A stretch of DNA of 64,000 nucleotides from an uncultured Elusimicrobia bacterium (GCA_903879915.1 CAIRNJ010000060.1:12412-76411); one strand, 5' to 3'; shown: positions 12,454 to 64,000, counted from the first letter of the stretch. Translations and numbers: made by a program. Notes: generated from the sequence alone by a model not told the origin.

Positions 12454-13368
12454 ATGTACACCCGTATAGACATCAAAATAACGTTCAGGTGCAACAATAA
12501 ATGCGATTTCTGCGCTCAGGGGCATAAACGGGATATATGCACCGACCGCACCCCGCAGCGCGTCTATGCCGACCTGGCGGCCGCCTATAAGCGCGGGGCC
12601 CGGGGCGTGGTCTTTACAGGCGGAGAGCCCACCATGCACCCCTCCGTGGTAGATTTCGTGGCCCGGGCTAAGAAATTGGGCTACCAGAAGATACAACTGC
12701 AGACAAACGGGCGCACCTTCGCCTACCCCAGCCTGCTGGAGCGGCTTAGAAAGGCCGGAGCCAATGAAATGGGGCCTTCGCTGCACGGGGCGAAAGCCGA
12801 GACCCATGACGGCCTTACGCACGCCCCCGGGAGCTTCCTGCAGACGGTCTCCGGCATAAGGAACGCCGCCCGGATGGGCTTTAACGTTATAACCAACACG
12901 GTCATAACCTCCGCCAATTACAGGGAACTTCCTGCCCTGGCGGGAATACTCGTTAAATTGGGCGTTACGCAGTACCAGTTCGCTTTCGTCCACATCATAG
13001 GTTCGGCCCTGGAAAACAAGAAATGGATAGTGCCGAAAAAGACGGAGATCATGCCCTGGGTGAAGAAAGGCCTCGATGCCGGGATCAAAAGCGGGATCGC
13101 CTGTTACACAGAAGCCATTCCGTTCTGCCTGATGCAGGGCTACGAGAACTGCGTGGCGGAACGGATAATCCCGGAAGGCCCGGTGGCGGACGGCGACAAA
13201 TTCATAGAGAACTACGGCGACTACCGCCGCAACGAGGGCAAGACCAAAGGCCCGCGCTGCCGGACCTGTAAATATTTCAAGATCTGCGAAGGCCCGTGGC
13301 GGGAATATCCTGAAATTTACGGGTGGAAGGAATTCCGCCCGGTCCTGGATAAACCCGGGAGCCGCTGA
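12454..13368 (+). CDS. Radical SAM protein with Cys-rich SPASM/twitch-like C-terminus
   Basis: CNNKCDFC (CX3CX2C) near the N-terminus, GGEPTMHP, and C-terminal CRTCKYFKICEG. Start moved to the ATG at 12454, preceded by GGAGAG. Confidence 0.85.
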   Translation: MYTRIDIKITFRCNNKCDFCAQGHKRDICTDRTPQRVYADLAAAYKRGARGVVFTGGEPTMHPSVVDFVARAKKLGYQKIQLQTNGRTFAYPSLLERLRKAGANEMGPSLHGAKAETHDGLTHAPGSFLQTVSGIRNAARMGFNVITNTVITSANYRELPALAGILVKLGVTQYQFAFVHIIGSALENKKWIVPKKTEIMPWVKKGLDAGIKSGIACYTEAIPFCLMQGYENCVAERIIPEGPVADGDKFIENYGDYRRNEGKTKGPRCRTCKYFKICEGPWREYPEIYGWKEFRPVLDKPGSR

Positions 13369-14675
13369 TGCCCCGCACAGTCACGAAACTTCTGGAACCT
13401 CTGCCAGGCATAAGAACGCTGGTCAGCGCAGCGGACAGGACCATCAAGATCTCCGTTTCCCCGGACAAGGCCGACCTTCCGGCCGCCCGCGCTTTTCTTT
13501 ACCGCGCGCTCAACGCGTACGAAAATAAATTCACCGTTCTCATCGAAGGCGTGCCGTTCTGTTTCCTGCCCGACGCTTACGACCATATCCTCCCCCCCCG
13601 CCGCTCCGGGAAGAACGTTTTCCCGGCCATCTGTAAGAAATGCCGCCTGAGGCCCGTCTGTCCCGGCCTGCGGCCGGGCCCGGTCCTTTCCGGCGCGGCG
13701 CAGCTCCTTAGGCCGGTCCTTGCAACGCCCAACGAACTGGTCATCGAGGTCAACCGCCGCTGCAACCTCGCCTGCGCCGTCTGCTCGGCGCGCGGCCTGG
13801 AAGAGGAACTGTCTTTCGGCGCGATGCAGGCCCACATGCGGAAGGCGCGCCGGCTGGGCATAAAAGATATCCGCTTTACCGGCGGAGAGCCGTTCCTCCA
13901 CCCGCGGATAGTAAAAACGCTGGCCGCCGCGAAAAAGGCCGGGTTTCACGTACTGGTCAACACCAACGCGACCTTACTGAGCCCGGCGCTGATAGAGCGC
14001 ATCGCCCCTTTAACGGACAACATACTGGTCTCGCTGCAGGGCCGCGACGAGCGAAGCGAAGCGGAGGCTACCGGCACTCCCGGCCTGTTCACGAAGAAGC
14101 TCGCCAATATCCGGGCGCTCAGGCGCGCCGGCATTCCGGTACTGCGGCTTGGGACCGTTATCTCCGGGGACCTGCTGGAGAATTTTGAAAAATATCTGCG
14201 GCTGGCGAAAGAGCTGGACGCCGACATCTGGGAGCTGTACCGCCCCATGCTGTCCGCCGGCAAAGGCCCGGCCGAGACCGTGACCCCCGCGGCGCTGCGC
14301 CGCCTGGCGCGGCGGCTAGAGGCCGGGCTCGGAGGCAGGCCACGCGTACTTTTCGCGAACCCGCTGCCGCTCTGCGTTTTCAAGAAAAGTCAGGCCCCCT
14401 TATTCCTGGGCGCGCGTTTCGACGACGGGCACACCCGGCTGGTACTGGACCCGCGCGGCTTTTACAAGCCGAGCTATTACATTCAGGAAAACCTGGGAAC
14501 GGACCTCCTGGCGGCCTGGAACGGCCGTTTTTTGAAAAAGATGCGCGCACTGGCTTATCTCGGAAAGAAATGTTCAAACTGCCCGCTGCGCCTGCGCTGC
14601 CTGGGAGGCAGCCGTTTTCTGGCGCGGGCCGTGCGCGGCAGTTATTTCAAGCCCGACCCCTGGCTGGCCGGCTGA
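13368..14675 (+). CDS. Radical SAM/SPASM protein with an extra N-terminal Cys-rich domain
   Basis: CNLACAVC (CX3CX2C), GGEPFLHP, and C-terminal CSNCPLRLRCLGG. N-terminal ~110 aa contain FCFLPDAYDHI...CKKCRLRPVCPG. Start overlaps the upstream stop (TGATG). Confidence 0.85.
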   Translation: MPRTVTKLLEPLPGIRTLVSAADRTIKISVSPDKADLPAARAFLYRALNAYENKFTVLIEGVPFCFLPDAYDHILPPRRSGKNVFPAICKKCRLRPVCPGLRPGPVLSGAAQLLRPVLATPNELVIEVNRRCNLACAVCSARGLEEELSFGAMQAHMRKARRLGIKDIRFTGGEPFLHPRIVKTLAAAKKAGFHVLVNTNATLLSPALIERIAPLTDNILVSLQGRDERSEAEATGTPGLFTKKLANIRALRRAGIPVLRLGTVISGDLLENFEKYLRLAKELDADIWELYRPMLSAGKGPAETVTPAALRRLARRLEAGLGGRPRVLFANPLPLCVFKKSQAPLFLGARFDDGHTRLVLDPRGFYKPSYYIQENLGTDLLAAWNGRFLKKMRALAYLGKKCSNCPLRLRCLGGSRFLARAVRGSYFKPDPWLAG

Positions 14676-14678
14676 AGG

Positions 14679-16508
14679 TCACTTCACGCCGGCAGTTTCC
14701 AGTGCCCGCGCTTCCTCGAGCCGCGGCCAGGAGGCCGGCGCGGTCTTTATGGTCCAGAGCAGCGTTTCCCTGGCCTCCTCTGCGCGCCCCAGCGCTTTCA
14801 GCAATTTATAACTTTCAAGCGAGGCGTCCAACCCCGTGAACGCAGCGCCTTCGACACCCGTATAATCGGCATAGGCCGCGCTTTGGCAGGCGGAGAGGGC
14901 TTCTTCTTTTTTATTCGCGGTGGCCAGGCGCATACACTTCTCTATAAGTGTTTCGGGCCTGGGGCGGGCGTGTTCCTCTACCAGGCGGGAAACTTTCCGT
15001 ATAACTTCAGCCGGCACGCCGTAGGACGAAAGTTTTTTAAGGATTTCTACCTGCTGCGCGCGCGAAAGGCTGTATTCCCCGCGGTGGAACCAGCCCAGCC
15101 CGAGCTCCCCCAGCCATTCAATGTTCTTTTCGTCGGAAAGCAGCTCGCTGTGCATGGCCGCTTCGGTCAGCCCGAGGGCCAGCCAGGCCGAAAAATTTTC
15201 CGGCTCCAGGGAAATGGCCTTCCGGAAACACGCGCGCGCCATTGTCAGCCTTTGCCCGGGCCAGACATGCCGCACGGCCACGTTGAACAGCCACCGGCCG
15301 CTGGTAAGCAGGGCGTTCGCCTGCTTGTCGCTGCCGTAGGAAAAAGCCCGGAACACGTCTTGCGGCCCCGAGAACCGCTTCAGCAGGGGCTCGTGAAAGC
15401 GCCCGGATATCTGTTCCGCGTACGCTTCGGCCAGCAGGATATAGCCGCTGAGGTTCGGATGGTGCCCGTCGGCGAAAAGGCCGCTGCCTACCAGCCCGTG
15501 CGGGGAGTTCGCTTCAAAAAGTTTCACGGCGTCTACCAGCGGCACGGAATATCTCCGGGCCAGGGCGCGGATGTAATCGTTCTGCAGACCCGTGGCCCGG
15601 TTGAAGTTATCCAGGGCGCCAAGGTCGGCGGCTTCCCTGTAGCTGCGCGCCGCGCTTTCATACCGGCCCAGCGCCCGGTAACAGCAGCCGCGGCGGTAGG
15701 TCAGGTACGCGCGCATCGCCGGATGCGCCGCGGCCTGCCCGGCATAATAGGCGATCGCGTCCGCCGCGCGCCCGTTATCTTCGAGCGCCTGCCCTTGCGC
15801 CAGCACCGCCCGCATCTGCTCGGCGCTCATATCCGGCTGCGGCAACAGCCCCGGGTCCATATCGGAAATATTCGTGGGGATAGTGGTAAGTACGGGCGTC
15901 AGGCCGCTCTTCAGGCTCAGCTCGACGATGCGGCGCAGGTGGTATTCATAAGTATCCAGGGTGCGCACCCTCAGGGGGCGGAACCGTTTTTCCGCGTAGA
16001 AGAGCAGGTCGCCGAGCAGCATTGACCGGGACAGGACGTTCTCCCGCAGCCATTCCAGGGCCGGCAGCCCGCGCATGTTGCCGGCGTCGCTGTTGCCCGT
16101 ATAAACAAGCACCGCGCCGGGGTTGTCCCGGTTCCGGGTCCGGAGCGCCTGTTCGAGCGCCACCGCCTGCGGGTAAACGGATTCGCCGCGCCGGGCGAAG
16201 TTGAATTCACGGATAGGCCGGTCCTGCAGCCTGCCCCCGAACAGCCGCGACACCATCGCGGGCGGCGTGATGCCCGGATCGTACGGCTCTCCCGCCGCCA
16301 CGGATTCCCCCACCATGTAAAGCGCGAAATAGCCGCTTTTGCCGGCGGCCGCGGAGTGCGCGCGTTTGTACGCCCAGAAAGCCCGGTACAGCAGTTCCGA
16401 AGCGAGCAGCAGGCCGAGTACGGCTATAAAACCGGCGGCAAAAAGCCTGCGCCGGCGCGCCGGGTCCGGAGCTAAGATCGGGCTTTTCTCTCTTTCAGGC
16501 ATAATCAA
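14679..16508 (-). CDS. Membrane-anchored SGNH/GDSL-like domain plus TPR-repeat protein
   Basis: N-terminal TM segment, LYMVGESVAAGEP (GxS block I-like), and multiple TPR-like helices. C-terminal ~45 aa closely match the ORF at 58681-60723. Confidence 0.55.
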   Translation of the reverse strand: MIMPEREKSPILAPDPARRRRLFAAGFIAVLGLLLASELLYRAFWAYKRAHSAAAGKSGYFALYMVGESVAAGEPYDPGITPPAMVSRLFGGRLQDRPIREFNFARRGESVYPQAVALEQALRTRNRDNPGAVLVYTGNSDAGNMRGLPALEWLRENVLSRSMLLGDLLFYAEKRFRPLRVRTLDTYEYHLRRIVELSLKSGLTPVLTTIPTNISDMDPGLLPQPDMSAEQMRAVLAQGQALEDNGRAADAIAYYAGQAAAHPAMRAYLTYRRGCCYRALGRYESAARSYREAADLGALDNFNRATGLQNDYIRALARRYSVPLVDAVKLFEANSPHGLVGSGLFADGHHPNLSGYILLAEAYAEQISGRFHEPLLKRFSGPQDVFRAFSYGSDKQANALLTSGRWLFNVAVRHVWPGQRLTMARACFRKAISLEPENFSAWLALGLTEAAMHSELLSDEKNIEWLGELGLGWFHRGEYSLSRAQQVEILKKLSSYGVPAEVIRKVSRLVEEHARPRPETLIEKCMRLATANKKEEALSACQSAAYADYTGVEGAAFTGLDASLESYKLLKALGRAEEARETLLWTIKTAPASWPRLEEARALETAGVK

Positions 16509-16533: not shown

Positions 16534-17889
16534 TCAGGACCGGCGGGCCTTCCGGATGCCGCGGATCTTATCGGCGAAAAGTTTTTCCAGCGCAGCGTAG
16601 GAGGAAAGGATGTCCTGGCCGTCCACGCCGCAGAAATGCCTGCGCCAATCGTCGTAGAACCCGCTGTCGCCCGGCAGGTCGGAGCCGCGATACTTGGGCT
16701 CCTTCGCAAGGAAACGGCGGCGCACCTCCGTTCCCGGCAGGACGGAAAAAACAGCGAGGCGCACCATTTTCCAGCTTATCTCCGGCAGTTCAAGCTTTTT
16801 CATTTCAGCCAGGGTCCCGGCCAGGGTCGCGCGCGTTTCCCCCGGCAGGCCCAGTATGAGGTTTACGATGGGGACCAGTCCGGCCCCGGCCGTCAGGGCG
16901 ATGGCGCGCCTGTTCAAAGCCACGCTGGCCCCTTTCCCCACGCCGCGCAGCACGGCGTCAGACATGGATTCAATACCCAGGCTGATATAGTTGGCGCGCA
17001 CCGCTTTAAGCAAGGCTATCACGCGCGGAGTCAGAGAAGAAGCGCGGGCAAAGATCTTAAGCACCGGAGTTTTTTTCCCGGCCGCCGCGGCCGCGAACCG
17101 CTCCAGCCAGGCGGCGTCGGCTGGAAAATCGTCGCTGCACTCGTAAACGTGCCTGACGCCCAGCTTGCCGTAAAGATGCGCCAGCTGCGCGGCCGCGGTT
17201 TCCGGGGGCAGGGCGCGCAGCCCTTTCGCCTGTATGCCGCAGAAGGTGCAGCGCCCGGCCCCCTCAGCCCATTTACAGCCGCGCTGGGAGGCGAACGAGA
17301 CCATGCGCCGGGAGTGCGCGGGCTGCAGGCGGAAATACGCGCCGAGGTCCGCCAGCGTATAATCTACGGGCGGCAGCCGCGCCAGGTCCAGGTTTTCCGA
17401 CGGGTTCTCTACAACTTTCCCGCGCGGGTCCTGGTAGATGAGGTTCTTTATGCTTTTATAAGCCGCGCCGCGGGCCAGTTCGCAGATGGCTTTTTCGCCG
17501 TCGTAGCGCACGATGGCGTCCACGCAATGGTCCCGGGAGCCGCGGCCCCGGTTGGCGAAGATCTCGTCCTTGAGCACCGGCGCGTAATGCCCGCCCAGCA
17601 CCACCACGGCGCCGTTCCTGTGCACCAGGCGCGCGGCTTCGAGCACCCTTTCGTAAGTACGCATCACCGGGCTGAAACCGGCCAAGTCATACCGCTCCGA
17701 CGCCAACTTTTTCAGAAAACGCGCGCGGCCCAGCACCTGTTCGTCGAGGATATCTACTTTTACGGAGGGAAGGGTCTCGCGCAGATAAGTGGCCAGCGAC
17801 AGCGCCCACAGCGGGGGCATGATCTCGAGCCACCGCTCCGTGCAGGGATTGTCTTCTGGCAGCGCCCGGTAGATGAGAGCTATCTTCAT
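16534..17889 (-). CDS. B12-binding-domain radical SAM protein with an expanded Cys motif (CX8CX2C)
   Basis: N-terminal Rossmann-like B12 domain (YDLAGFSP...VVVLGGHYAPV), then SQRGCKWAEGAGRCTFCGI. Confidence 0.75.
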   Translation of the reverse strand: MKIALIYRALPEDNPCTERWLEIMPPLWALSLATYLRETLPSVKVDILDEQVLGRARFLKKLASERYDLAGFSPVMRTYERVLEAARLVHRNGAVVVLGGHYAPVLKDEIFANRGRGSRDHCVDAIVRYDGEKAICELARGAAYKSIKNLIYQDPRGKVVENPSENLDLARLPPVDYTLADLGAYFRLQPAHSRRMVSFASQRGCKWAEGAGRCTFCGIQAKGLRALPPETAAAQLAHLYGKLGVRHVYECSDDFPADAAWLERFAAAAAGKKTPVLKIFARASSLTPRVIALLKAVRANYISLGIESMSDAVLRGVGKGASVALNRRAIALTAGAGLVPIVNLILGLPGETRATLAGTLAEMKKLELPEISWKMVRLAVFSVLPGTEVRRRFLAKEPKYRGSDLPGDSGFYDDWRRHFCGVDGQDILSSYAALEKLFADKIRGIRKARRS

Positions 17890-17899: not shown

Positions 17900-19174
17900 T
17901 TATCTGCTCAGCAGGCTGTTGAGCAGCCGGCCGGTCAGCGAAACCGCCCCGGCAAAGCCCAGGAACGGCTCGTCGGAGAGGCAGTGGTGCCCGTACGAAG
18001 GGAACCCCAGCTCGACGTAAGGCCTTTTCATGTCCAGCAGCTCCGTGACCGTGAACGAGTTCCCCACCACCACGTCCGTGCGGGAATAGCCGGAAAGGTC
18101 CCTGATCAGGGAAAGGGCCTCGGCCGTGTCCGGCGCGAACAGCAGCGCGCGCGGGAGCCTGTCGGTCCCAAGGGGCCTCGCGAACGAGTCCAGCAGCGCG
18201 CAGTTTATCCGCATTCCTAATTCCGGGGCCAGCGAGGCGAAAGCGGCGAAAAGGCAGGGGTCGCCGGCGTAAGCGACGTTCTGGTGGGCCAGCGCGTGCA
18301 GCGCCGGGGCCATGGCGGCGGCCGTGCTTTTCGCCAGGGCGGTTACGGCCGGCGGGAGCCCCTCTTTTATTCCGGCCGCGGCGCGAACACTTTCCAGCCA
18401 GCGGCAGGTGCCGCCGATCCCCATCGGCAGCCCTGTCTCCACCAATTTGGCGCCGGAGCGGGCAGCTATCGCGGCCGCCGCCGCGCGCCCGTAAGGCAGG
18501 GATACGACCACGTCGGCCTCAAGCGCGCCGCTCAGAGCCCCGAATCCGCCGCCGGAAGGGAAAACGCAGGCCAAGCCGAGGCCGCACAGCTCCAGCAGCC
18601 GGCGGAGCTCAGCGATATTGGCGGAATGGTCTCTTTCATTGCGGTCCATCAAATAGCCGACCAGGGCCACCGAGCGCTTGCGCCTTTTCACCTTCCGGTC
18701 CGGCAGCGCGCGCGCCAGCGCGGCCAGCGCCTGCGCGTAGCCGTCCAGCCAGTCGGCCTCGTTATGCGGCACCGGGACGTCCAGCACCGGTACGCGGGCG
18801 GTCAGCCCCGCCGCTATGCCCTCGTAGTCCATGCCGGCCATCTTCAAAAAAGGGAGGCTGGTAAGCAGTATCACGGAAAAGTCCTTCTGGTCGGCGACCC
18901 CGAGCAGGATGTCGGTCAGCTTCTTCTCGGGATCCTGCCGCTGCGGCAGCGGCGCCGACATGGTGCACAGCACGCGGTGCCTGCCGTCGGCGGAAAGCAG
19001 CGTGGAGTAAAGATCGTGGTTGCCGGCCAGGAAATCCACCTTCGGCATCACGCAGTTCGGCCCGTCCACCACCAGGCAGGCGTCCGCCACGGCGTTGACG
19101 GCAAGGTAGACGCCGAGCTGATACGGCAGATTGAAGGTCTTGGGGAACCTATGGCTTGGAAAGGTATTGTTCAT
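17900..19174 (-). CDS. Nitrogenase component-1-type oxidoreductase subunit (NifK/N / BchB/N-like)
   Basis: 424 aa. ADACLVVDGPNCVMPKVDF resembles the H-G-P-x-G-C region of the family, and the layout is Rossmann-like throughout. Start overlaps the upstream fusion gene by 26 nt. Confidence 0.6.
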   Translation of the reverse strand: MNNTFPSHRFPKTFNLPYQLGVYLAVNAVADACLVVDGPNCVMPKVDFLAGNHDLYSTLLSADGRHRVLCTMSAPLPQRQDPEKKLTDILLGVADQKDFSVILLTSLPFLKMAGMDYEGIAAGLTARVPVLDVPVPHNEADWLDGYAQALAALARALPDRKVKRRKRSVALVGYLMDRNERDHSANIAELRRLLELCGLGLACVFPSGGGFGALSGALEADVVVSLPYGRAAAAAIAARSGAKLVETGLPMGIGGTCRWLESVRAAAGIKEGLPPAVTALAKSTAAAMAPALHALAHQNVAYAGDPCLFAAFASLAPELGMRINCALLDSFARPLGTDRLPRALLFAPDTAEALSLIRDLSGYSRTDVVVGNSFTVTELLDMKRPYVELGFPSYGHHCLSDEPFLGFAGAVSLTGRLLNSLLSR

Positions 19175-22735: not shown

Positions 22736-22745
22736 CGCAAAGAAC

Positions 22746-24185: not shown

Positions 24186-24270
24186 AGTCACCCCCCACAA
24201 CGAATATCCGCCGCGCACGGCGGCGGACAGCTAAAGTGCTCCTCCACAAAAGCCGGTTCTTTCTTTATTA

Positions 24271-25227: not shown

Positions 25228-25407
25228 TCCTAATCCGCAATACTGTGTTTACGCCCGGAGAGGACGCAACAGCAACAGCTCCGGCGCGCGATGACCCTAA
25301 TTATAACACACTCGCGGCCCGGCGATAAATCCTGTACGTCAGGCATTATCCTGCCCGGGCGCGGACCGAATTTGCGCACGAACGGGGAAAGTGTGTAAAA
25401 TTCAAAA

Positions 25408-26640: not shown

Positions 26641-26645
26641 GACGC

Positions 26646-28097: not shown

Positions 28098-28135
28098 AGT
28101 ATTGTCCTTTTTTGAAGAAAATCCATTCTCGTGTT

Positions 28136-29434: not shown

Positions 29435-29462
29435 AATTTTCCTTTCCTTGTACGCAGCATGT

Positions 29463-34483: not shown

Positions 34484-34491
34484 AGTTAGAC

Positions 34492-44929: not shown

Positions 44930-44940
44930 TATTTCGCCGC

Positions 44941-47545: not shown

Positions 47546-47576
47546 AGAAAAAATCTCCCGTTAATTCAGCCCCCGG

Positions 47577-53329: not shown

Positions 53330-53346
53330 TGTCCGCCATCCTGTTT

Positions 53347-53658: not shown

Positions 53659-53742
53659 AACCTGCCCCTTTTACCCTGCCCGGCCGCTGCCGCTTTCCGG
53701 CTTTTTCCCCATAAAAATAGCCGGGCCTCCGGCTGAAGCCCA

Positions 53743-53784
53743 ATTATATACATATTGTATACCATTTCCCCGCGGATTCCGCAA
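53743..53784 (-). promoter_or_regulatory. Candidate sigma70-type promoter for the His-Xaa-Ser gene string
   Basis: Minus strand reads TTGCGG (53784-53779), then 17 nt, then TATACA/TACAAT, then a perfect TATAAT (53748-53743). An 11-nt palindrome GCGGAATCCGC overlaps the -35 element. This is the only sizeable spacer in about 14 kb of co-directional genes. Confidence 0.4.
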
Positions 53785-53844
53785 TGGCCCGCCCCCCGGG
53801 AAAATACGCCCGGCCGGCCGCCGCAAAGCCCGGAATAAAAAAGG

Positions 53845-56850: not shown

Positions 56851-57522
56851 TCAGCGGCGGCCGGCCGCCCGCTGCAGCTGCCAGTGCTTAAGCCCCTCCT
56901 CCTTCAGGATAAGATCGTCCAGGCCGGCCATTCTCGCGTAAACCCCGGCCTCGGCCGCGGTCAGGGCGGCGCGCAAAGAATTGCGCAGCAGCTGCTGCTG
57001 GCGCGGCGTGTTCACACCGGCTATACGCCTGATATGCCCGTCCAGTTCGGCCAGCGTGCGGGGGCGGCGCAGGTCCCGCAGCAGGAGGCCGCCTCCGGGC
57101 CGGCACAGCCGGGCCGCTTCGCAAAACAGCGGGTAGGGGTCGGAGAAATGATGTACCAGGTTATTGCAGATCACAAGATCGAAAGAGCCGGCGGGCAGCT
57201 TCGTGCGCTTGGCGTCGCCGCGCAGCAGCGTTATCCGGCCGCCGAGCCGCGCCCGCGCTATGTTCTCCGCCGCCAGCCCGAGCATGGCCGGCGACAGTTC
57301 CACGGCAGTTATCTTCGCGCCTTTTATTCTCCGGCAGATGGCCAGCGGGATATCGCAGGGGCCCGCCCCGAGGTCTATCACGCTGCCGCCGCGGAAGCCC
57401 AGCTCGTCCGCCACAAGGTCCGCGAAGGCCGCGCTGACTTCGGCGCGGTCTATGGCCGCGTATTCCAGGGCGTCGGCCTCGGATTCTATAAGCTCGGGTT
57501 CAAGGACCCTTTTTAGTGTCAT
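56851..57522 (-). CDS. Class I SAM-dependent methyltransferase
   Basis: VIDLGAGPCDIPLAI (motif I), VICNNLVHHF, and RPGGGLLLRD. Confidence 0.8.
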   Translation of the reverse strand: MTLKRVLEPELIESEADALEYAAIDRAEVSAAFADLVADELGFRGGSVIDLGAGPCDIPLAICRRIKGAKITAVELSPAMLGLAAENIARARLGGRITLLRGDAKRTKLPAGSFDLVICNNLVHHFSDPYPLFCEAARLCRPGGGLLLRDLRRPRTLAELDGHIRRIAGVNTPRQQQLLRNSLRAALTAAEAGVYARMAGLDDLILKEEGLKHWQLQRAAGRR

Positions 57523-57636: not shown

Positions 57637-58680
57637 ATGACAGAGAACACGACTTCCTCTACCGGCTCAGCCCCCTGGCGGCTCGCCATCCTGCTTGTAC
57701 TGGAATGCGTTGTGCTGCTGGCCCTGGCCGAAGGCTACCTCGCCTGGTCCGGGCTGGACACGCGCATCCTGGGCGGATTGATCTACTTCCAGGGAGTCGA
57801 TGTGGAGGCGCACAGGCCTTCAGAGAACACCGTGCTGCATTACGAGCTTAACCCCGGGGCCTCAGTGGTCTTCGCCAGCACCAGGACGGTGACCGTCAAC
57901 GCCCTGGGCTTCCGCGATCCCCCCCGCGCCGCCGCCAAACCCGCGGGCGTAAAGCGGATAATCTGCCTGGGCAGCTCCAACACTTACGGCGCGCTGGTCA
58001 ACGGCGGCCAGACCTATCCCGCGCAGCTGGAGCGGCTGCTCAACGCCCGCGGGCGCGGCCGCTATGAGGCCTGGAACACCGGCACCTGCACCTACATGAT
58101 ACCGCAGAACCTGGAAATAGCCGCCAGGGCGCTGCGGGAGTACTCCCCCGACCTGCTGCTGTTCCAGTTGAACAATTCCGGCCGGCGGGCCTTCCTGCTC
58201 GGCAAACCTTTCAAACAGTATTTCGACCGCGACCCGGGCCTTTACCTGGAGAACCTGCGCTACGCCTGGCCGCGGCAGCTGAACTTCCTGCGCCGCTGGC
58301 GGCTCTTCCGGGCCGTGGTGTTCTATATGAACCGCGTCAGCCTGAACAAAAAAGACCCCGCCTATGACTGGAATAAAACCTCGGAGCTGCTGCCGTCCGA
58401 TGTAGCGGCGTTCAGGGAATTCTACGAGGCTAACAAGGCGAAAGTGCGCATGGCGGTGCTGGTGGTGCCCGTGCCGGGCAATAAACTGGAACACGCTTTC
58501 GACGGGACCGGAATTCCCGTTATCCGCCTGGCTGAAAAGCTGCCGGCGAAGCACGACCCCGAATTCGACAAGATACATCCGGCCGGCTACGTATATCGCT
58601 GGTACGCGGAGAAAATAGCGGCCGAGCTGCCGCGCCTGCTGCCCGGCGCTCCGGCCGGGCCCCGGGTAAAAACTGAATAA
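57637..58680 (+). CDS. Membrane-anchored SGNH/GDSL-like hydrolase or acyltransferase-family protein
   Basis: N-terminal TM segment, RIICLGSSNTYG (block I), and KIHPAGYVYRWYA (block V-like region). Confidence 0.5.
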   Translation: MTENTTSSTGSAPWRLAILLVLECVVLLALAEGYLAWSGLDTRILGGLIYFQGVDVEAHRPSENTVLHYELNPGASVVFASTRTVTVNALGFRDPPRAAAKPAGVKRIICLGSSNTYGALVNGGQTYPAQLERLLNARGRGRYEAWNTGTCTYMIPQNLEIAARALREYSPDLLLFQLNNSGRRAFLLGKPFKQYFDRDPGLYLENLRYAWPRQLNFLRRWRLFRAVVFYMNRVSLNKKDPAYDWNKTSELLPSDVAAFREFYEANKAKVRMAVLVVPVPGNKLEHAFDGTGIPVIRLAEKLPAKHDPEFDKIHPAGYVYRWYAEKIAAELPRLLPGAPAGPRVKTE

Positions 58681-60723
58681 TTATTTTTCCGCCGGCACGG
58701 CCAGCAGTTTGCCGGCTTCGGCGCGCTTCGGCCAGGAGGCCGGAGCGTTCTTGACCGTCCACAGTAAAGTTTCCCGCGCTTCCTCGCCGCGGCCCATGGC
58801 CATGAGCAATTTGTAGCTTTCGAAAGACGCGTCGCTGCCCAGCAGCCCCAGCGTGCCTTTTTTATCCTCGGCGCTGGCGCTGACCATATAGACCACGTCC
58901 TGGCAGGCCTGCAGCGCCTTTTCCGGGTCTTTCCCGGGCCCGGGCTTCATGCACTCTTCCATCCGCTCCTCAAGCCTGTCCTTCTGCACCGGGCTGACGG
59001 CCGCGGACTGCGCGCTGTACGCCGGGAAGGTCAGGTCAAGGCCGTAAGCCAGCCCCAGCGACACCGCTTCGCGGCGCAGGCCCGACCCCTGGAATTCTTT
59101 TTCCGCCTCTTTTTTCCGGCCCAGGCCGGCCAGCACCTGCGCGCGCTCGAGCATGAAAGTGCCCCTGCCGGGCGCCAGCGCCAGCGCCCTGTCGCACAGG
59201 GCCAATGCCCGGCCGTAATTCCCGGCGCGGCGCTCTACTTCGGCCAGGTGCGCCAGGAAAAGAGGGAACAGCTCCTTCAGCCGCATCGCCTTGCCCAGGG
59301 ACCAGAAATTGCGCAGTATCAGTTTATCCAGAGCTTCCGGCGAGCCGGCGGCCTCCTCCAGCAGGCCGGGAAGTTTTTTCCGGATAAAAGCGAGTTCGGC
59401 CAGCGAGCCTTCGTCGAAGGTGGAGTTCTGCTCGTCCAGCCAGGTAACCGCGTAGCTGAGCCGCTTCAGCGCGTCGTAGCGCGGCGTCTCCTGCCACCTG
59501 GAGCTGTCCGCCGACCTGAACTTCTCGAAACCTTTTATCCCGCAGGCCGAGGCCGAGCGGAAGATCTCGTCCCAGACCGCCTTGTTATAGGGCGGGCGCC
59601 AGTGCATGCCGTCCGTGAATTCTTCGAACCCCGGCAGCCCGCCGGCGGAAAAGCCGTAGAACAGCTTGTCCAGCCCGGCCACGCAGGCGTCTTCAGAAGC
59701 CGCCACCTTCCGGATAAGGGCGTTCCTGTCCGCGCTGGCGCGGCTCATATCCTCGTCGTAATCCACGGCCTTGCGCAGATAGGCCCCGGCCTCCGCGGCC
59801 TTGCCCAGCTTGACCAGCGTCTGCCCCATGTAGAAATTAAGGAAATGCTCCTGCGGGCGCTCCGCCAGGCCCACTTTGAACTTCGCGGCGGCGGCCTCGT
59901 ACTTCTTAGCGTAAAAATCAGCGTAGCCCGCCGCGAACCTGACGTTCTCCAGCGGCGCCTGCCGGCGCGAGGGCATGTCGGCCATATTGGCGGGCAGGGC
60001 GCAGAAAACGACGGGGACGCCCGCTTTCTTCGCCGCCGCCGCCATTTTCGCCAGCATGTCCCCGTGCATCTTAAGGTTGGCTTTTTTCCTGGCCTGCTGC
60101 GGGTTGTCCTTCAGCGCGTAATACCGCTCGAGCAGCCGGAACTCCCTGCGCCGCAGCTCGAAATCCAGCCCGGGGCAGTTCCGGTCCGTGGAGCCCTCGT
60201 TATTCCCGCTCAGCACCACGATCAGGTCGGGGCTGTAGGCCAGCACCTCTTTTAAGATGCCGTAGATCCTGTAGCTTTCGTAGCCGCTCATGCCGCAGTT
60301 CAGTATCTCTATGCCGGAGGAGGGCTTGCCGGAGATAAGGCCTTTTTTCGCCAGCTTCCGCAGCAGCCCGCCGCCGAAACTGTCGGTCTGAACGGCGGCA
60401 TAGCCGGGCCCGAGTATGGTAGCCACCGATTCGCCCAGCACGAATACCCTTTTAACTCCGGCGGGCTTGGGCATGGAGAACTGTTCCTGCATGGCCAGGC
60501 TTCTCTGCGCCCTGAACTCGCCTTTGCCCGGCGCCGTCTCCGCGAAGAATGGCTTTTTGAGATCTTCGCAGAAATAGCCGCTCTGGTCCTGCTTGCCGGG
60601 GTCCTGCACCTGCCCGTCCCGGCCGTCTCCGGGCCTGCCGCTGCCGCCCGACGGGCCGGGGCCGCCGCACGGCGCGGACAGGGCCAGGCAGAAGAATAAA
60701 TAAATAAAAATCAGCTTTGACAT
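58681..60723 (-). CDS. Exported SGNH-like domain plus TPR-repeat protein (paralogue of 14679-16508)
   Basis: Signal peptide, VFVLGESVATILG, and TPR helices. The C-terminus ESYKLLMAMGRGEEARETLLWTVKNAPASWP matches ESYKLLKALGRAEEARETLLWTIKTAPASWP in the paralogue. Confidence 0.55.
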   Translation of the reverse strand: MSKLIFIYLFFCLALSAPCGGPGPSGGSGRPGDGRDGQVQDPGKQDQSGYFCEDLKKPFFAETAPGKGEFRAQRSLAMQEQFSMPKPAGVKRVFVLGESVATILGPGYAAVQTDSFGGGLLRKLAKKGLISGKPSSGIEILNCGMSGYESYRIYGILKEVLAYSPDLIVVLSGNNEGSTDRNCPGLDFELRRREFRLLERYYALKDNPQQARKKANLKMHGDMLAKMAAAAKKAGVPVVFCALPANMADMPSRRQAPLENVRFAAGYADFYAKKYEAAAAKFKVGLAERPQEHFLNFYMGQTLVKLGKAAEAGAYLRKAVDYDEDMSRASADRNALIRKVAASEDACVAGLDKLFYGFSAGGLPGFEEFTDGMHWRPPYNKAVWDEIFRSASACGIKGFEKFRSADSSRWQETPRYDALKRLSYAVTWLDEQNSTFDEGSLAELAFIRKKLPGLLEEAAGSPEALDKLILRNFWSLGKAMRLKELFPLFLAHLAEVERRAGNYGRALALCDRALALAPGRGTFMLERAQVLAGLGRKKEAEKEFQGSGLRREAVSLGLAYGLDLTFPAYSAQSAAVSPVQKDRLEERMEECMKPGPGKDPEKALQACQDVVYMVSASAEDKKGTLGLLGSDASFESYKLLMAMGRGEEARETLLWTVKNAPASWPKRAEAGKLLAVPAEK

Positions 60724-60830: not shown

Positions 60831-62537
60831 ATGAATATTCTTGGAATTTCGGCTTATTATCACGATTCCTCCGCCTGCCTGGTTCAGGACGGCAGGATCG
60901 CCGCCGCCGCCCAGGAAGAGCGGTTCTCGCGCAAAAAAAATACCCCCGACTTCCCGCTGGCCGCCATCAATTACTGCCTGCAGGCCGGCGATATCACGGC
61001 CGACGACCTGGACTGCGTGGTCTTCTATGAAAAGCCTTTCCTTAAATTCTCCCGGGTACTGCTGGGCCACATCGGCGCCTGGCCGCGCTCGCTGGGCGGG
61101 TTCATGCGCTCCATGCCGCTCTGGCTCAGCGACCGCCTCACGGTGCCGCTGACGCTCAGGGACGGGCTCGGCTACCAGGGCAAGGTTTTTTTCGTAAGAC
61201 ACCACCTTTCCCACGCGGCCTCCTCCTTCCTGGCCTCCCCTTTCGACGAAGCCGCCATACTTACGGCCGACGCCGTAGGCGAATGGGCCACCACCTCCAG
61301 CGGCACCGGCAAAGGCAGCGCCATAACGCTGGACCGGGAAATAAATTTCCCGGATTCGCTGGGGCTGTTCTACACCGCGCTCACCACCTTCCTGGGCTAC
61401 GAGGCGCACGAAGGCGAAGGCAAGGTGATGGGCCTGGCCGGCTGCGGCAAGCCGGTCTTCATGGACGAATTCAAACGGCTCGCTGACGTGGCGGCGGACG
61501 GCAGCTACCGCCTCGACCAGTCCTACTTCTCTTTCTACGGCGGCGACCGGATGTACAGCCGCAAGATGGAGCGGTTGCTGGGCCCGGCGCGGAGGCCGGG
61601 CGGCCCGGTGGAAGGGCGGCACGCCGACATAGCGGCCAGCCTGCAGAAATTCACGGAAGATATCCTGGTAAAACTGGCCCGCGATCTCCACGCGCGCACC
61701 GGCCTGCAGAACCTGTGCCTCGGAGGCGGCGTGTTCCTTAACTGCGTGGCCAACCAGAAGATCCTTGAAAGCTCCGGCTTCAAGAACGTTTTCATACAGC
61801 CCGCGGCCGGGGACTGCGGCGGCGCGGTGGGCGCGGCGCTGTACGCCGCCAACAGCCTTTTCAACATCCCCCGGGCGCCCGCCATGGAACATCCCTGCCT
61901 GGGGCCTGAATTTTCGGAGCGGGCCATCGAGCGCGCCATATCGGCCTCGGGACTCGAGGCGAAAAAACTTCCCGACGCGGAACTGTTCGAACATACCGCG
62001 CGGCTGGTGGCGGCCGGCCTGGTGACCGGCTGGTTCCAGGGCAGGATGGAGCTGGGTCCGAGGGCGCTGGGCAACCGCACTATTTTGGGCGACCCCCGCA
62101 ACCCGGACATGAAGCGCCTGCTCAACGACAAAGTAAAACACAGGGAGCCGTTCAGGCCGTACGCGCCGGCCATCCTGGCGGAAAAGGCCGGGGACTATTT
62201 CGAGCTTTCCTGCCCCTCCCCTTTCATGCTGCTGGCCCCGGGCGTGCGCCCCGACAAAGCACCGTCCGTCCCGGCCGCCTGCCACGACGACGGCACGGCG
62301 CGCGTGCAGACGGTCTCGGAGCGCACCAACCCGCGCTTCTACTCCCTGATACGGGCTTTCGACCGGCTGACCGGCGTGCCGATAATACTCAACACCTCTT
62401 TCAACCGGCGCGGCGAGCCCATAGCCTGCGAACCCGCCGACGCGCTGAAGATCTACGCCGCTACGGAGATGGACGCGCTGGTGCTGGGCAATTTCGTGCT
62501 GGAGAAAGCACCGGCCGGGGCGGCGAACAATGGATAA
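60831..62537 (+). CDS. Carbamoyltransferase (NodU/CmcH family)
   Basis: MNILGISAYYHDSSACLVQDGRIAAAAQEERFSRKKNTPDFP is the hallmark N-terminus, and the length and C-terminal YrdC/Kae1-like layout also fit. Confidence 0.9.
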   Translation: MNILGISAYYHDSSACLVQDGRIAAAAQEERFSRKKNTPDFPLAAINYCLQAGDITADDLDCVVFYEKPFLKFSRVLLGHIGAWPRSLGGFMRSMPLWLSDRLTVPLTLRDGLGYQGKVFFVRHHLSHAASSFLASPFDEAAILTADAVGEWATTSSGTGKGSAITLDREINFPDSLGLFYTALTTFLGYEAHEGEGKVMGLAGCGKPVFMDEFKRLADVAADGSYRLDQSYFSFYGGDRMYSRKMERLLGPARRPGGPVEGRHADIAASLQKFTEDILVKLARDLHARTGLQNLCLGGGVFLNCVANQKILESSGFKNVFIQPAAGDCGGAVGAALYAANSLFNIPRAPAMEHPCLGPEFSERAIERAISASGLEAKKLPDAELFEHTARLVAAGLVTGWFQGRMELGPRALGNRTILGDPRNPDMKRLLNDKVKHREPFRPYAPAILAEKAGDYFELSCPSPFMLLAPGVRPDKAPSVPAACHDDGTARVQTVSERTNPRFYSLIRAFDRLTGVPIILNTSFNRRGEPIACEPADALKIYAATEMDALVLGNFVLEKAPAGAANNG

Positions 62538-62772
62538 GATAAAGAAATTCACCCGGGCCGTTTTTCTGGCGGTACAGCGCGTGCTGGTGCCCGCCTTCCT
62601 GTTCCTCGCCTATATTTTCGCGATAGGCGCCATGGCCGCGCTGGACAGGCTCTTCCGCTTCCAGCCGCGCCGCAGGACCGGGCAGAGCAGCTTCTGGCAG
62701 CCGGGAGAAAGCGTTTTCTCGGCCGACCTCGGAGAAAAGAAAGGCGCCGAAGACGCCCTTTCGCAATCGTAA
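62530..62772 (+). CDS. Small membrane protein, unknown
   Basis: 80 aa with one clear TM segment (VLVPAFLFLAYIFAIGAMAAL). Overlaps the carbamoyltransferase stop by 8 nt. Confidence 0.45.
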   Translation: MDKIKKFTRAVFLAVQRVLVPAFLFLAYIFAIGAMAALDRLFRFQPRRRTGQSSFWQPGESVFSADLGEKKGAEDALSQS

Positions 62773-62777
62773 GCCCT

Positions 62778-62939
62778 ATGAATAAATTAACGCTGATAAT
62801 GCGGGAAAGCCTGGCGCTGGTAAAAAAGCACAAGATCTATTTCCTGCTGCCGCTGCTGATCTCGCTGGCCCTGCTGGCCCTGCTGGCCTTCCACGTCGGG
62901 CCCGGCATAGTGGTTTCCTTCATCTACGCCGGGATCTGA
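62778..62939 (+). CDS. Small membrane protein resembling the DUF5989-type peptides found next to carbamoyltransferases
   Basis: Below the ORF-track size cut-off. Hand translation: MNKLTLIMRESLALVKKHKIYFLLPLLISLALLALLAFHVGPGIVVSFIYAGI (53 aa). Confidence 0.5.
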   Translation: MNKLTLIMRESLALVKKHKIYFLLPLLISLALLALLAFHVGPGIVVSFIYAGI

Positions 62940-62958: not shown

Positions 62959-62996
62959 GCCGCCGCGCGCCTCAGGGCGCCGGCGGCTTTCCGTTT
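62959..62996 (+). terminator. Candidate intrinsic terminator between convergent genes
   Basis: GC-rich hairpin gccgccgcgcgcc-tcag-ggcgccggcggc (one bulge) followed by tttccgttt. Confidence 0.45.
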
Positions 62997-63790
62997 CAGG
63001 GCAGCGGGCAGTAGACCAGGCGGTCCACGCGCAGCAGTTCAAGCTCTTTTTCCGAAGAATAGAATTTGCCGGGGAACTCCATAAAAACGGTATTCCCCCG
63101 TATCAGCAGCTTTTCCTTCACCCAGGGATGGTCCACTTTAAAAGCGCAGGCGCGGCATTCGCGGCCGCAGTCTATGCCGCGCACCGAATCCCTGGGCTGG
63201 ATGTCCCGCAGCCCCACCAGGCAGGTGCGGGTGGTGGTAAGGTTGAGGTACGGGTAGTGCAGCGTGAAAGCGAAGCCTTCCGGTTCGAAGCCGCAGCCGC
63301 TCCGGCTGAAGTTAGTGCGCGGCATGGCGCCCGCGGCCGAGATCTCGTAGCGCCGGATGCCGCGCTCAAGGAAAAAATCCAGCGAGCGGCGGTTGAGCAG
63401 GGAAAGCGACCCGCTGTTCTGCTCGAAGACGTTGTAGGCGAACTGCCGCCCGGCGCCGAGTTTCACCGGCAGCTTCGCCCGGGCCGCCAGCGCCAGCGCG
63501 CCAAAATCGTTGATGGTTATCTCAAGCCGCCCGGCGTCGAGGCGCCCGGTCCTGAGCAGCCGGGCCAGCTCCCTGAAAATAGCGGCCAGGCTGGCCGCGC
63601 CTTTGTCGGTCAGCAGCGGCGTGAGCAGGCAGACTTTCTTCCCCAGCTTCTGAAAACGGACCAGCTCCGCGCAGACGGCGGTCTCCAGCAGGTTCTCGCA
63701 GAATTCCGGCCCCAGGTAAACCCAGTTAAAAAGGGCAGGCACGGCCTTAGCCCCGCCGCCGCCCAGTCTTATGCCGTGTTCTATGGCCAT
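62996..63790 (-). CDS. U32-family protein, UbiV-like (paralogue of 53845-54615)
   Basis: WVYLGPEFCENLL and LHYPYLNLTTTRTCLVG...IDCGRECRAC. Start moved to the ATG at 63788-63790 (MAIEHGIRL...). Confidence 0.55.
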   Translation of the reverse strand: MAIEHGIRLGGGGAKAVPALFNWVYLGPEFCENLLETAVCAELVRFQKLGKKVCLLTPLLTDKGAASLAAIFRELARLLRTGRLDAGRLEITINDFGALALAARAKLPVKLGAGRQFAYNVFEQNSGSLSLLNRRSLDFFLERGIRRYEISAAGAMPRTNFSRSGCGFEPEGFAFTLHYPYLNLTTTRTCLVGLRDIQPRDSVRGIDCGRECRACAFKVDHPWVKEKLLIRGNTVFMEFPGKFYSSEKELELLRVDRLVYCPLP

Positions 63791-63791
63791 G

Positions 63792-64000
63792 TCAGTATTT
63801 CTTCCCGTCCCAGCCTTCCAGCCTTTTAATGAACCGTTCGCGCGCTTCGCGGGCCGGGTAAGCCGCGGCAAGCTCCCGGGCGTGGTCGAGCGTAGCGCGC
63901 ATGTCGGCCACTTTCCGCGCCTTTACGTCCGGCGGGTCCCGGCGGGTGCCGTATTTAAGATACCCGACCCCGGCGGCGAAATAATCGTACAGCGACGCCG
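63792..64000 (-). CDS. C-terminal fragment of an upstream gene, probably the UbiU-like U32 partner (runs off right edge)
   Basis: Not in ORF track. The hand-translated open frame of 68 codons ends ...YLKYGTRRDPPDVKARKVADMRATLDHARELAAAYPAREARERFIKRLEGWDGKKY, with stop at 63792-63794, 1 nt from the next ATG. The call rests mainly on synteny with the 54612/53845 pair. Confidence 0.35.
   Translation of the reverse strand, partial: ASLYDYFAAGVGYLKYGTRRDPPDVKARKVADMRATLDHARELAAAYPAREARERFIKRLEGWDGKKY

Follow-up and report, generated by a model that had tools for sequence, protein, structure and literature searches.

What does a nitrogenase-like (NFL) reductase do when its neighbors are radical S-adenosylmethionine (SAM) enzymes and a repeat peptide? 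The question is raised by a 64,000-nucleotide stretch of DNA from an uncultured Elusimicrobia bacterium (GCA_903879915.1 CAIRNJ010000060.1:12412-76411; hereafter, the window). From 12406 to its right edge, the window holds a dense gene cluster that encodes two nitrogenase-like proteins, NflHD and NflK, and a small His-Xaa-Ser precursor, HxsA4. An initial annotation, made from the sequence alone, proposed three functions: anaerobic synthesis of a tetrapyrrole- or quinone-like cofactor, reductive scavenging of organosulfur or organophosphorus compounds, and maturation of the His-Xaa-Ser protein. The last of these is the one favored by our comparison of related loci, in which Hxs genes are recurrent partners of the NFL genes across phyla. 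At about even odds, we read the region as an expanded Hxs type-4 peptide-maturation cluster with the NFL enzyme as its ATP-driven tailoring reductase: a lineage-specific expansion of a Group VI NFL locus whose conserved heart is a His-Xaa-Ser type-4 maturation system. A functional coupling of the NFL genes to the Hxs system is probable. Direct action of the NFL enzyme on the peptide is plausible, though we would put it somewhat below an even chance.

Group VI assignment of NflHD and NflK

NflHD (19149-21671, minus strand; 840 residues) fuses a NifH-like ATPase/[4Fe-4S] domain to a NifD-like domain (Pfam Fer4_NifH and Oxidored_nitro). NflK (17900-19174, minus strand; 424 residues) resembles NifK and BchB subunits (Oxidored_nitro, E 5e-36). 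Across 16 fusion proteins, the P-loop of the H domain (G8-K9-G10-G11-G13-K14) is invariant, as are C93 and C129. The D part has five conserved cysteines (C317, C349, C449, C526 and C828) and one conserved histidine, NflK has the single conserved cysteine C41, and NCBIfam recognized no NifB-like gene among the radical SAM proteins of the window. One conserved cysteine in NflK, five in NflD and no NifB-like gene together point to an enzyme that carries simple Fe-S clusters.

The fusion protein has about 90 full-length homologues, and those with a named source are nearly all from Elusimicrobia; it is 56% identical to the fusion protein of Elusimicrobia bacterium GWF2_62_30. We placed NflHD in a neighbor-joining tree of 98 NifH domains, a distance tree of locally gathered sequences built without a published reference set. 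It fell with all NflHD and NflH-D-K loci, including two of Myxococcales type, in a clade of 20 members, and 78 ordinary NifH domains lay outside. The organism GWF2_62_30 is named in the description of a new NifH clade, Group VI, which has many radical SAM neighbors (Meheust et al., 10.1101/765248). We conclude that NflHD and NflK, judged by their sequences, belong to the Group VI NFL clade. The initial annotation had mentioned nitrogenase paralogues in radical-SAM-rich loci of Elusimicrobia, in agreement with the published description of the clade into which the window protein falls. According to a 2026 review, no Group VI member has been characterized and simple Fe-S clusters have been suggested for the group (PMC13474568).

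That annotation had named a place of the Nif-like genes inside a characterized clade as grounds against novelty, and no such placement was seen. The H domain missed the NCBIfam equivalog cut-offs by wide margins (CfbC, 204 versus 402; NifH, 196 versus 394; BchL, 147 versus 345; BchX, 137 versus 331), and so did the catalytic parts (BchN, 51 versus 420; NifK, 29 versus 427; BchB likewise below). In a PDB search NflD and NflK were nearly orphan, the best chain for NflK reaching only E 1e-6. A search of 1.84 billion cluster representatives returned 254 for NflK at E<=1e-30. Another architecture appeared in a set of 1,000- to 1,100-residue proteins (P0090-P0109) that join Fer4_NifH, NB-ARC/AAA_16/nSTAND-type NTPase matches and Oxidored_nitro; the NflHD query matched these over the NifH domain only.

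Perhaps, then, the enzyme reduces a tetrapyrrole? On this account NflHD/NflK would reduce a porphyrinoid ring double bond, the HemN-like and B12-radical SAM enzymes would tailor the product, a U32 protein and a methyltransferase would hydroxylate and methylate a tetrapyrrole- or quinone-type cofactor, and the Hxs genes would be a separate neighbor. CfbC and BchL are among the nearest characterized relatives of the H domain by sequence, and HemN_C and B12-binding domains do occur in the window. A U32 protein followed by a methyltransferase resembles O2-independent ubiquinone synthesis (PMC6747719; PMC10990095). The tetrapyrrole idea is also the context-based preference of both Meheust et al. 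(10.1101/765248) and the 2026 review, which considers genetic context of little help for Group VI beyond this suspected link (PMC13474568). These family resemblances, to which the initial annotation had appealed, stand, but neither the window nor any of the 19 other NFL contexts described below contains a gene of tetrapyrrole or quinone synthesis. The HemN-like genes are not conserved partners, the B12-radical SAM proteins match RiPP (ribosomally synthesized and post-translationally modified peptide) enzymes best, and NflD and NflK bear only a very weak resemblance to dark-operative protochlorophyllide oxidoreductase (DPOR). HemN-like and B12-radical SAM enzymes are also common as methylases of peptides and natural products. 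The account leaves unexplained why NFL genes lie between HxsB and HxsA4, and we consider it unlikely.

Hxs genes as recurrent neighbors of NFL genes

We compared 20 Group VI contexts: the window in full and 19 others, each comprising NflHD/NflK with 10 kb on either side. Hxs genes (HxsB, HxsD-like or HxsA4) were present in 10 of the 20. Open reading frames (ORFs) with His-Gly-Ser (HGS) repeats were found in 6 of the 20 and at none of the ordinary NifH loci. At 68 ordinary NifH loci we saw no HxsB, no HxsD, no member of the 264-residue or U32_315 families described below, no SGNH hydrolase with tetratricopeptide repeats (SGNH-TPR) and no HxsC-like radical SAM gene.

The arrangement is compact in L003, whose fusion protein is 61% identical to that of the window. 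Here the conserved genes occupy about 15 kb. A leftward run (a 306-residue radical SAM protein, a U32 protein and a 273-residue protein) diverges from a rightward run of NflHD, NflK, a hydrolase, a 257-residue protein, HxsD, HxsB, a second HxsD, a 371-residue protein, HxsA4, a glycosyltransferase (GT) and a radical SAM protein. HxsB of this locus scored 482.7 bits against TIGR03978 (cut-off 370); the HxsD copies were below the NCBIfam cut-off. A contig from the sample of the window organism (P0022) carries a single co-directional run that begins with three B12-radical SAM genes and continues with a 305-residue radical SAM protein, U32, a 275-residue protein, NflHD, NflK, HxsD, a 71-residue protein, a radical SAM gene of HxsB size, proteins of 110 and 146 residues, a B12-radical SAM gene, a 180-residue protein and a methyltransferase. 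L137 has the order HxsD-HxsB-HxsD, five radical SAM genes, an aminotransferase, NflHD, NflK and an M20 peptidase, followed by a gene resembling ornithine transcarbamylase (OTCase). In L003 (14804-15577, plus strand) and L137 (570-1316, plus strand), Gly-rich proteins of 248 to 257 residues ending in CCRIQ lie directly upstream of HxsD-HxsB; they could be a second radical SAM substrate.

The same partners recur in further loci, two of them of Myxococcales type. In L017, a metagenome-assembled genome of Myxococcales, and in L119, HxsB, NflH, NflD, NflK and HxsA4 follow one another on one strand, with a radical SAM-methyltransferase fusion and then HxsC-like radical SAM genes downstream; the small ORFs upstream of HxsB in these two loci were not recognized as HxsD by Pfam. 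In L139 and L012 an SGNH-TPR gene abuts NflHD, and both HxsA4 and HxsB are found within 10 kb. Contig P0013 holds HxsD and a radical SAM gene of HxsB size, and L022 holds a partial HxsB-like match. In all, HxsA4 homologues are present in NFL loci L003, L012, L017, L119 and L139, and Pfam matches to HxsD were found in the continuation of the window organism's own cluster and in three relatives. The commonest immediate neighbor of NflHD in relatives is the SGNH-TPR gene, often ending a few bases before the NflHD start. Orthologues of the window copy at 58681-60723, 37 to 58% identical, adjoin NflHD/NflK in L010, L012, L135, L136 and L139, and in P0013 a 680-residue gene call with TPR only lies directly upstream of NflHD.

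Could these be independent systems that merely share a variable genomic island, an Hxs-like module, possibly antiphage, beside an unrelated NFL/radical-SAM module? HXS is an antiphage system in Gammaproteobacteria (PMC13128918). Each module is also found without the other, an IS200-type transposase stands at the cluster boundary, and content varies greatly among relatives. Against chance co-location are the interleaved single-strand operons in two phyla and the 68 control NifH loci, none of which carries these genes. Against a role in defense, the 103-residue HxsA4 has neither a peptidoglycan-binding domain nor basic residues in its repeats, both of which the HXS model requires, and the gene order differs from that of the antiphage system (Li et al. 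2026). PADLOC returned only generic radical SAM similarity (viperins). We regard independent co-location as quite unlikely.

We also searched from the other direction. Among 43 metagenome loci with HGS repeats, those with enough flanking sequence mostly had HxsB directly upstream. A second type of repeat protein, with the leader LRKTP.DFLS.EEARQA and the ending ...HGSW, appeared in metagenome loci L097, L099, L107, L116, L122 and L128, where contigs of up to 11.8 kb contained no radical SAM gene. In L124, HGS repeats run through almost the whole of an ORF of about 240 codons.

The HxsA4 precursor and its gene string

HxsA4 (53347-53658, minus strand; 103 residues) scored 76.6 bits against NCBIfam NF038313 (cut-off 55). 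After a conserved leader (KK..FL.SEEG) come a hydrophobic stretch resembling a signal sequence and about 14 His-Gly/Ser-Ser repeats; the last residue is Tyr. Its homologues share the leader KK..I..FL.SEEG and nine to 15 or more near-perfect S-H-G units, and nearly all of them end in Tyr or Trp; read by eye, their hydrophobic stretch runs up to an A-x-A-type site, and in the Myxococcales-type proteins a twin-arginine-like TRRDLV precedes it. The repeat DNA is only 85 to 88% self-identical. Because its units vary synonymously, selection on the repeat seems to act at the protein level. Upstream of the gene, the intergenic leader (53659-53844, minus strand) contains an AT-rich promoter-like stretch, GGTATACAATATGTATATAATTGGG, a GC-rich hairpin and a T-run, all recognized at the level of consensus in a genome of 62% G+C. 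This region may be a dedicated promoter or attenuator of the precursor.

HxsA4 lies within a minus-strand string headed by a class I SAM methyltransferase of 223 residues (56851-57522), upstream of which is a promoter-like site (57619-57592; 10/12 match). Next come a B12-binding radical SAM protein of 468 residues (55416-56822), a U32-family protein of 266 residues (54612-55412; Peptidase_U32, E 1.8e-12), its 256-residue partner (53845-54615), HxsA4, an exported protein of 224 residues (52655-53329) that begins 17 nucleotides downstream of HxsA4, and a B12-binding radical SAM protein of 469 residues (51242-52651). A 469-residue B12-radical SAM protein is also encoded downstream of the HxsB operon on contig P0022. 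Where NCBIfam gave a best match for the B12-radical SAM proteins of the window, it was in every case a RiPP enzyme, and each was below cut-off: ApyD for the 469-residue protein, a KedN5-type C-methyltransferase subfamily for the 468-residue protein and a RiPP C-methyltransferase subfamily for the protein next to NflK.

The exported 224-residue protein had only three homologues among 5.8e9 proteins, and its AlphaFold model (predicted local distance difference test [pLDDT] score 47) was too poor for a structure search. A longer reading of this gene (52655-53494) was rejected. It overlaps HxsA4 in another frame at 53347-53494, where it reads the repeat as (ARLPRF)n; the real start is at 53329, and its matches in L012 and L017 were discarded as frame-shifted HGS repeats.

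The cluster does not end with the window. A 63.7-kb contig from sample ERZ1426829, whose genes are identical to those of the window, continues after the 264-residue gene with U32 (315 residues), Radical_SAM (305), proteins of 224 and 104 residues, Radical_SAM (504), a 77-residue protein and HxsD (135 residues; precomputed Pfam match PF27806), where the contig ends. The 504-residue radical SAM gene call is a candidate HxsB by position and size. On a short contig, L005, the 104-residue protein, which ends in ...HGSHGSHGSGY, is recognizable as another His-Gly-Ser repeat protein, a second HxsA4; after it comes a paralogue (53% identical) of the exported 224-residue protein, so that the pair is present twice. 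Since the continuation carries further cluster genes, the cluster runs on past the right edge, as the initial annotation had stated, by at least 5 kb, and measures at least 56 kb in total.

Radical SAM, U32 and 264-residue proteins

At the far left of the cluster, 12406-13368 (plus strand) encodes a 320-residue HxsC-like radical SAM protein (Pfam Radical_SAM) with CNNKCDFC and a C-terminal Cys cluster; its orthologues in NFL loci L013, L017 and L119 are 53 to 54% identical. The start of a second radical SAM gene (13368-14675, plus strand; 435 residues; Pfam) overlaps its stop, and orthologues of this protein, 48 to 55% identical, lie beside the HxsA4 loci L092 and L012. Next are a GDSL/SGNH hydrolase with TPR (14679-16508, minus strand; 609 residues; Pfam), a paralogue of 58681-60723, and the B12-type radical SAM protein adjacent to NflK (16534-17889, minus strand; 451 residues; Pfam/NCBIfam). 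The window encodes nine radical-SAM-type proteins, seven with a canonical CxxxCxxC. The other two have variant motifs: C205-x8-C214-x2-C217 in 16534-17889 and C159-x3-C163-x5-C169 in 32193-33419 (minus strand).

Near the right edge, a 264-residue protein (62996-63790, minus strand) is preceded by the last 68 codons of a 315-residue U32 protein (63792-64000, minus strand), whose translation is identical to the U32 protein of L005 and whose full gene matches Pfam U32. The 264-residue protein is the last member of a trio in which the U32/partner pair is always preceded by a 305-residue HxsC-like radical SAM protein. It has 100 homologues; every named one is from Elusimicrobia, none has a Pfam domain, and 11 appear to share contigs with NflHD matches. 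The 256-residue partner in the HxsA4 string, which also lacks a Pfam match, is its paralogue (BLASTP E 4e-7). U32_266 has the motif C-x6-C-x15-C, of which U32_315, by eye, has the variant C-x6-C-x18-C; these account for three cysteines of the four-Cys Fe-S site typical of UbiU/UbiV-type hydroxylases. Against the UbiU model the window U32 protein scored 46 bits (cut-off 440). The AlphaFold2 model of the 264-residue protein (pLDDT 83) is TIM-barrel-like. In a search for its fold no PDB structure matched at E<=0.001, and U32 Mk0906, although highest by TM-score, was unconvincing. A further U32 candidate, at 33416-34558, was dropped, with no Pfam or hhalign support for either the 380- or the 225-residue unassigned protein of the cluster. 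Hence the "five U32 proteins" initially listed reduce to two that Pfam supports (one of them the 68-codon fragment), two that are weakly U32-like and one without support.

A possible route from precursor to product

How might these proteins work together? HxsA4 would be made ribosomally, with its leader, signal-like segment, about 14 HGS/HSS repeats and terminal aromatic residue. Still inside the cell, the peptide could be held by HxsD-like proteins in the cytoplasm while HxsB and the HxsC-like radical SAM proteins install oxidative or cross-linking changes on the repeats. These roles are proposed because, in the HXS system, HxsC binds HxsD and a +8-Da change occurs on an S-H-R-S-S motif (PMC13128918). 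The U32 pair might add oxygen without O2, by analogy to UbiU/UbiV, which catalyze O2-independent hydroxylation with prephenate as the oxygen donor (PMC6747719; PMC10990095), and the B12-radical SAM enzymes and SAM methyltransferases would add methyl groups. Driven by ATP hydrolysis, NflHD/NflK would then pass low-potential electrons by way of simple Fe-S clusters to an otherwise unreactive intermediate on the peptide, unsaturated or heteroaromatic, and so reduce it. The target might be the aromatic residue at the end of the peptide, the imidazole ring or a Ser-derived aldehyde adduct. The product would be exported, and the exported SGNH-TPR hydrolases might finish or trim it.

Several observations weigh against this scheme. 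In six contexts (L011, L090, L091, L135, L136 and L138) the 10 kb on either side contain no Hxs gene and the neighbors are mostly unrelated, genes of purine synthesis, the tricarboxylic acid (TCA) cycle and regulators among them; four more (L010, L013, L015 and L014) offer only HxsC-like radical SAM genes or too little sequence for a judgment. NFL genes lie near just 1 of the 43 HGS loci. With so few, the HGS/HxsB family looks wider than Group VI, with the NFL genes as an apparently optional element in part of it; the NFL-Hxs link is facultative both ways. The protein of 12406-13368 falls short of HxsC membership (HxsC4, 150 bits against a cut-off of 500; HxsC, 99.7 against 267.9). The 264- and 256-residue partners resemble U32 proteins weakly (hhalign E 1.2e-3, probability 19%; best Foldseek TM 0.44-0.47 to the U32 structure 5d88, E 0.015). 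Within the window itself, the conserved pieces are spread over three segments 30 to 40 kb apart. To our knowledge, no nitrogenase-family enzyme acts on a peptide. The proposed action of the NFL enzyme on HxsA4 draws on gene arrangement and its recurrence.

Neither component is new: NFL proteins of the Group VI kind were published in 2020, and HxsA4 is a curated family. Our search of the searchable, and incomplete, literature returned no link of nitrogenase-like enzymes with RiPPs, Hxs or U32 proteins, nor did it return the Elusimicrobia-specific trio of radical SAM, U32 and 264-residue proteins or the SGNH-TPR neighbor of NFL genes. The recurrent, cross-phylum coupling of NFL and Hxs genes is an addition to the published descriptions. 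The HxsB-NflHDK-HxsA4 arrangement also offers a specific and cheaply testable candidate substrate, a peptide of about 100 residues. We tentatively propose that Group VI enzymes might be peptide-tailoring reductases, the first of the nitrogenase family to act on a ribosomal peptide; ATP would drive their reduction of His-Gly-Ser units of HxsA4 that radical SAM enzymes have already modified. If so, nitrogenase-family chemistry would extend from small molecules and tetrapyrroles to peptides. The product would be either an exported repeat peptide of a new, heavily modified class or a small cofactor derived from His, of which a multi-core precursor would release many copies. The proposal would also bear on the chemistry of His-Xaa-Ser systems, one of which, as work of 2026 showed, keeps phage DNA from entering (PMC13128918). 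If the peptide reading fails, the tetrapyrrole proposal loses no ground.

A lineage-specific middle block

The NFL and HxsA4 strings are separated by a long accessory block (21857-51245). Its first part (21857-29473; Pfam/NCBIfam) encodes an EamA transporter, two HemN-like radical SAM paralogues (22746-24218 and 26646-28097; 60% identical to each other), a MetA-type outer-membrane channel, a major facilitator superfamily (MFS) transporter and a 445-residue methyltransferase. The second (29463-41464; Pfam) encodes seven exported paralogues of the alkaline phosphatase superfamily (six Sulfatase, one Phosphodiest), a degenerate radical-SAM-like protein of 408 residues and the unassigned protein of 380 residues. 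The third (41454-51245; Pfam), on the strand of the HxsA4 string, encodes an NMT1-type binding protein, a 297-residue methyltransferase, a B12-radical SAM protein, an SsuABC-like importer, a porin O/P, the exported, unassigned 225-residue protein and a Phosphodiest-type protein of 659 residues. This third part abuts the HxsA4 string, and overlaps of 1 to 20 nucleotides continue through to 51242-52651. The importer, the porin and one alkaline phosphatase paralogue are likely co-transcribed with HxsA4 and a B12-radical SAM gene, because all sit in one overlapping string.

All eight exported alkaline phosphatase paralogues of the window have signal peptides. We considered a sulfatase with an anaerobic sulfatase maturase, and this was ruled out: none of the eight has the C/S-x-P-x-R nucleophile motif of formylglycine-dependent sulfatases, in place of which they have W-T-L-P-S with an invariant Thr. 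NCBIfam models for arylsulfatase and choline sulfatase scored far below cut-off. By these motifs the eight are predicted to be Thr-nucleophile enzymes of the alkaline phosphatase fold, with no need of a sulfatase maturase. The HemN-like paralogues matched the STM4012 family best (163 bits; cut-off 380), and the hydrolase at 40034-41464 weakly matched STM4013, likewise below cut-off. This hints that a HemN-like enzyme and an alkaline phosphatase-fold hydrolase may form a unit of their own, like the uncharacterized STM4012/4013 of Salmonella.

Little of this block is shared. No soluble exported counterpart of the alkaline phosphatase-fold proteins came up by BLAST in the 43 HGS loci and 19 other NFL contexts; the sole Sulfatase-domain match in relatives was a 605-residue DUF3413+Sulfatase protein of membrane type in L135, 7 kb upstream and 25% identical. 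Nor did the NFL or HGS loci yield a BLAST match for the EamA transporter, the MFS transporter, the porin, the MetA-type channel or two of the three methyltransferases. The importer had no counterpart in the compared loci beyond generic matches to ATP-binding cassette (ABC) components in L095 and L024, and the HemN-like pair had only weak matches, of about 25% identity, in L013, L022 and L093. Since its alkaline phosphatase paralogues, importer and porin and most methyltransferases of the window are absent from the sampled relatives, and its HemN-like pair is at best weakly matched there, we conclude that the 21857-51245 block is, to judge from gene content, a lineage-specific addition outside the conserved system. 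The initial annotation had treated the whole as one 51-kb functional unit. That view is not supported by the compact L003 locus, or by the absence of the esterase-fold proteins, importer and porin from every sampled relative. Scattering of the gene families across relatives, which it had named as a sign of chance juxtaposition, was seen for about half of the cluster.

This block bears on the scavenging hypothesis. On that account the exported esterase-fold enzymes, the porin and the importer would feed an organosulfur or organophosphorus substrate to the NFL enzyme, which would cleave C-S or C-P bonds as do Mar and Isr. In its favor, the SsuA-family binding protein comes near its cut-off (SsuA_fam, 147 bits against 163.5), the porin is of phosphate type and accompanies the eight alkaline phosphatase-fold paralogues, and the importer shares a gene string with HxsA4. 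Mar and Isr are precedents, and Group IV NFL genes have been linked to sulfur genes (PMC13474568). What the hypothesis fits, though, is the non-conserved middle block only. Its importer, porin and alkaline phosphatase-fold genes lie 8 to 30 kb from NflHD and are missing from all 19 other NFL contexts, the "sulfatases" lack the sulfatase nucleophile motif, and the window contains no partner of NifB, MarB or IsrB type. The tree of locally gathered NifH domains places the NFL proteins of the window in Group VI, which makes membership in IV-C or IV-F, the groups of Mar and Isr, unlikely. We think scavenging very improbable.

Limits of the cluster and remaining genes

At about 62% G+C the window contains many long spurious ORFs, and the gene set was chosen by Pfam/NCBIfam support and strand continuity. 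From 12406 to 64000 it comprises 43 genes in full and one in part, which added together are as long as the span itself. Overlaps of 1 to 26 nucleotides are common at the junctions, and Pfam/NCBIfam annotation found no housekeeping gene. Three co-directional strings are evident (21671 to 14679, 35937 to 26646 and 57522 to 42658). In these respects our gene calls agree with the initial annotation, as they do in the counts of one nitrogenase-like reductase, nine radical SAM proteins, three SAM methyltransferases (by Pfam), eight exported alkaline phosphatase paralogues and one His-Xaa-Ser protein. Rfam recognized no riboswitch or other RNA family in the 64 kb, and terminator and promoter scans gave counts no higher than in shuffled sequence.

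To the left lies a housekeeping, motility and signaling flank (89-11183) with isoleucyl-tRNA synthetase (IleRS), MotB, a FliF/FliG-like fusion, MotA, a two-component pair and a PorV/UPF0164-TPR protein. It ends with an IS200/IS605-type Y1 transposase (11592-12302, minus strand), 103 nucleotides before the first cluster gene, which is the left boundary of the cluster and may be connected with the division of the conserved genes into three separated segments here. The motor-like set in this flank (3040-7857, minus strand) consists of MotB, a 539-residue protein of no assigned family, a 584-residue fusion of FliF_C with FliG_M/C, and MotA; the window has no further flagellar genes. In the relative L138 an unidentified gene is followed by MotB and then ClpB.

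Between the HxsA4 string and the 264-residue gene are a membrane-anchored SGNH-like protein (57637-58680, plus strand; 347 residues; weak Lipase_GDSL_2 match), the exported, lipoprotein-like SGNH hydrolase with TPR (58681-60723, minus strand; 680 residues; Pfam), a paralogue of 14679-16508, and, at 60831-62939 (plus strand; Pfam), a NodU/CmcH-type carbamoyltransferase of 568 residues with two small membrane proteins (80 residues; 53 residues, DUF5989). The last three genes form a compact cassette; L137 and L139 carry an OTCase-like carbamoyltransferase near NflHD instead.

Comparison with known systems

How does the cluster compare with systems already described? UbiU/UbiV, TrhP and RlhA share with it a U32 domain and the C-x6-C-x15-C Fe-S-type motif, together with a second, smaller partner and methyltransferases that follow. 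The window differs from UbiU/UbiV in a partner family without a Pfam match and in having no UbiT-like lipid carrier. DPOR (BchLNB), chlorophyllide oxidoreductase (COR; BchXYZ) and CfbCD likewise combine an ATP-dependent Fe protein with a catalytic component that has simple Fe-S clusters and reduces a conjugated ring, but in those enzymes H and D are not fused, and no tetrapyrrole genes are near the NFL genes of the window.

The pathways of pyrroloquinoline quinone (PQQ), mycofactocin and the proteusins are alike in logic only. They have a small precursor with a leader, a C-terminal aromatic residue, a SPASM radical SAM enzyme with a small peptide-binding partner, and multiple B12-radical SAM methylases, and a peptidase (M20) is found in some relatives of the window locus. 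A multi-repeat tripeptide core together with an ATP-dependent nitrogenase-like reductase has no counterpart in these pathways. HXS (HxsABCD), the antiphage system of Enterobacteria, and the His-Xaa-Ser systems of TIGRFAM/NCBIfam share a probably exported His-Xaa-Ser repeat protein, a SPASM-type HxsB, an HxsD-like protein and an HxsC-like radical SAM protein. Unlike the HXS repeat protein, HxsA4 is of about 100 residues, with 13 to 16 near-perfect HGS repeats and a terminal Tyr or Trp but without a peptidoglycan-binding domain or basic residues in its repeats. The genes here depart from the D-B-C-A order, and extra radical SAM, U32, methylase and nitrogenase-like reductase genes are interleaved.

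The closest likeness is to the published Group VI loci of Elusimicrobia, Gracilibacteria and Myxococcales (Meheust et al. 2020). The window adds to them about 30 kb of exported hydrolases and transporters found in no sampled relative, and its H and D parts are fused in one 840-residue protein. It shares with them the clade, the P-loop and the two cluster cysteines of the H part, very divergent D and K proteins without the ligand sets of the P-cluster or FeMo-co, the lack of NifB, and many radical SAM neighbors, B12-binding and HemN_C types included.

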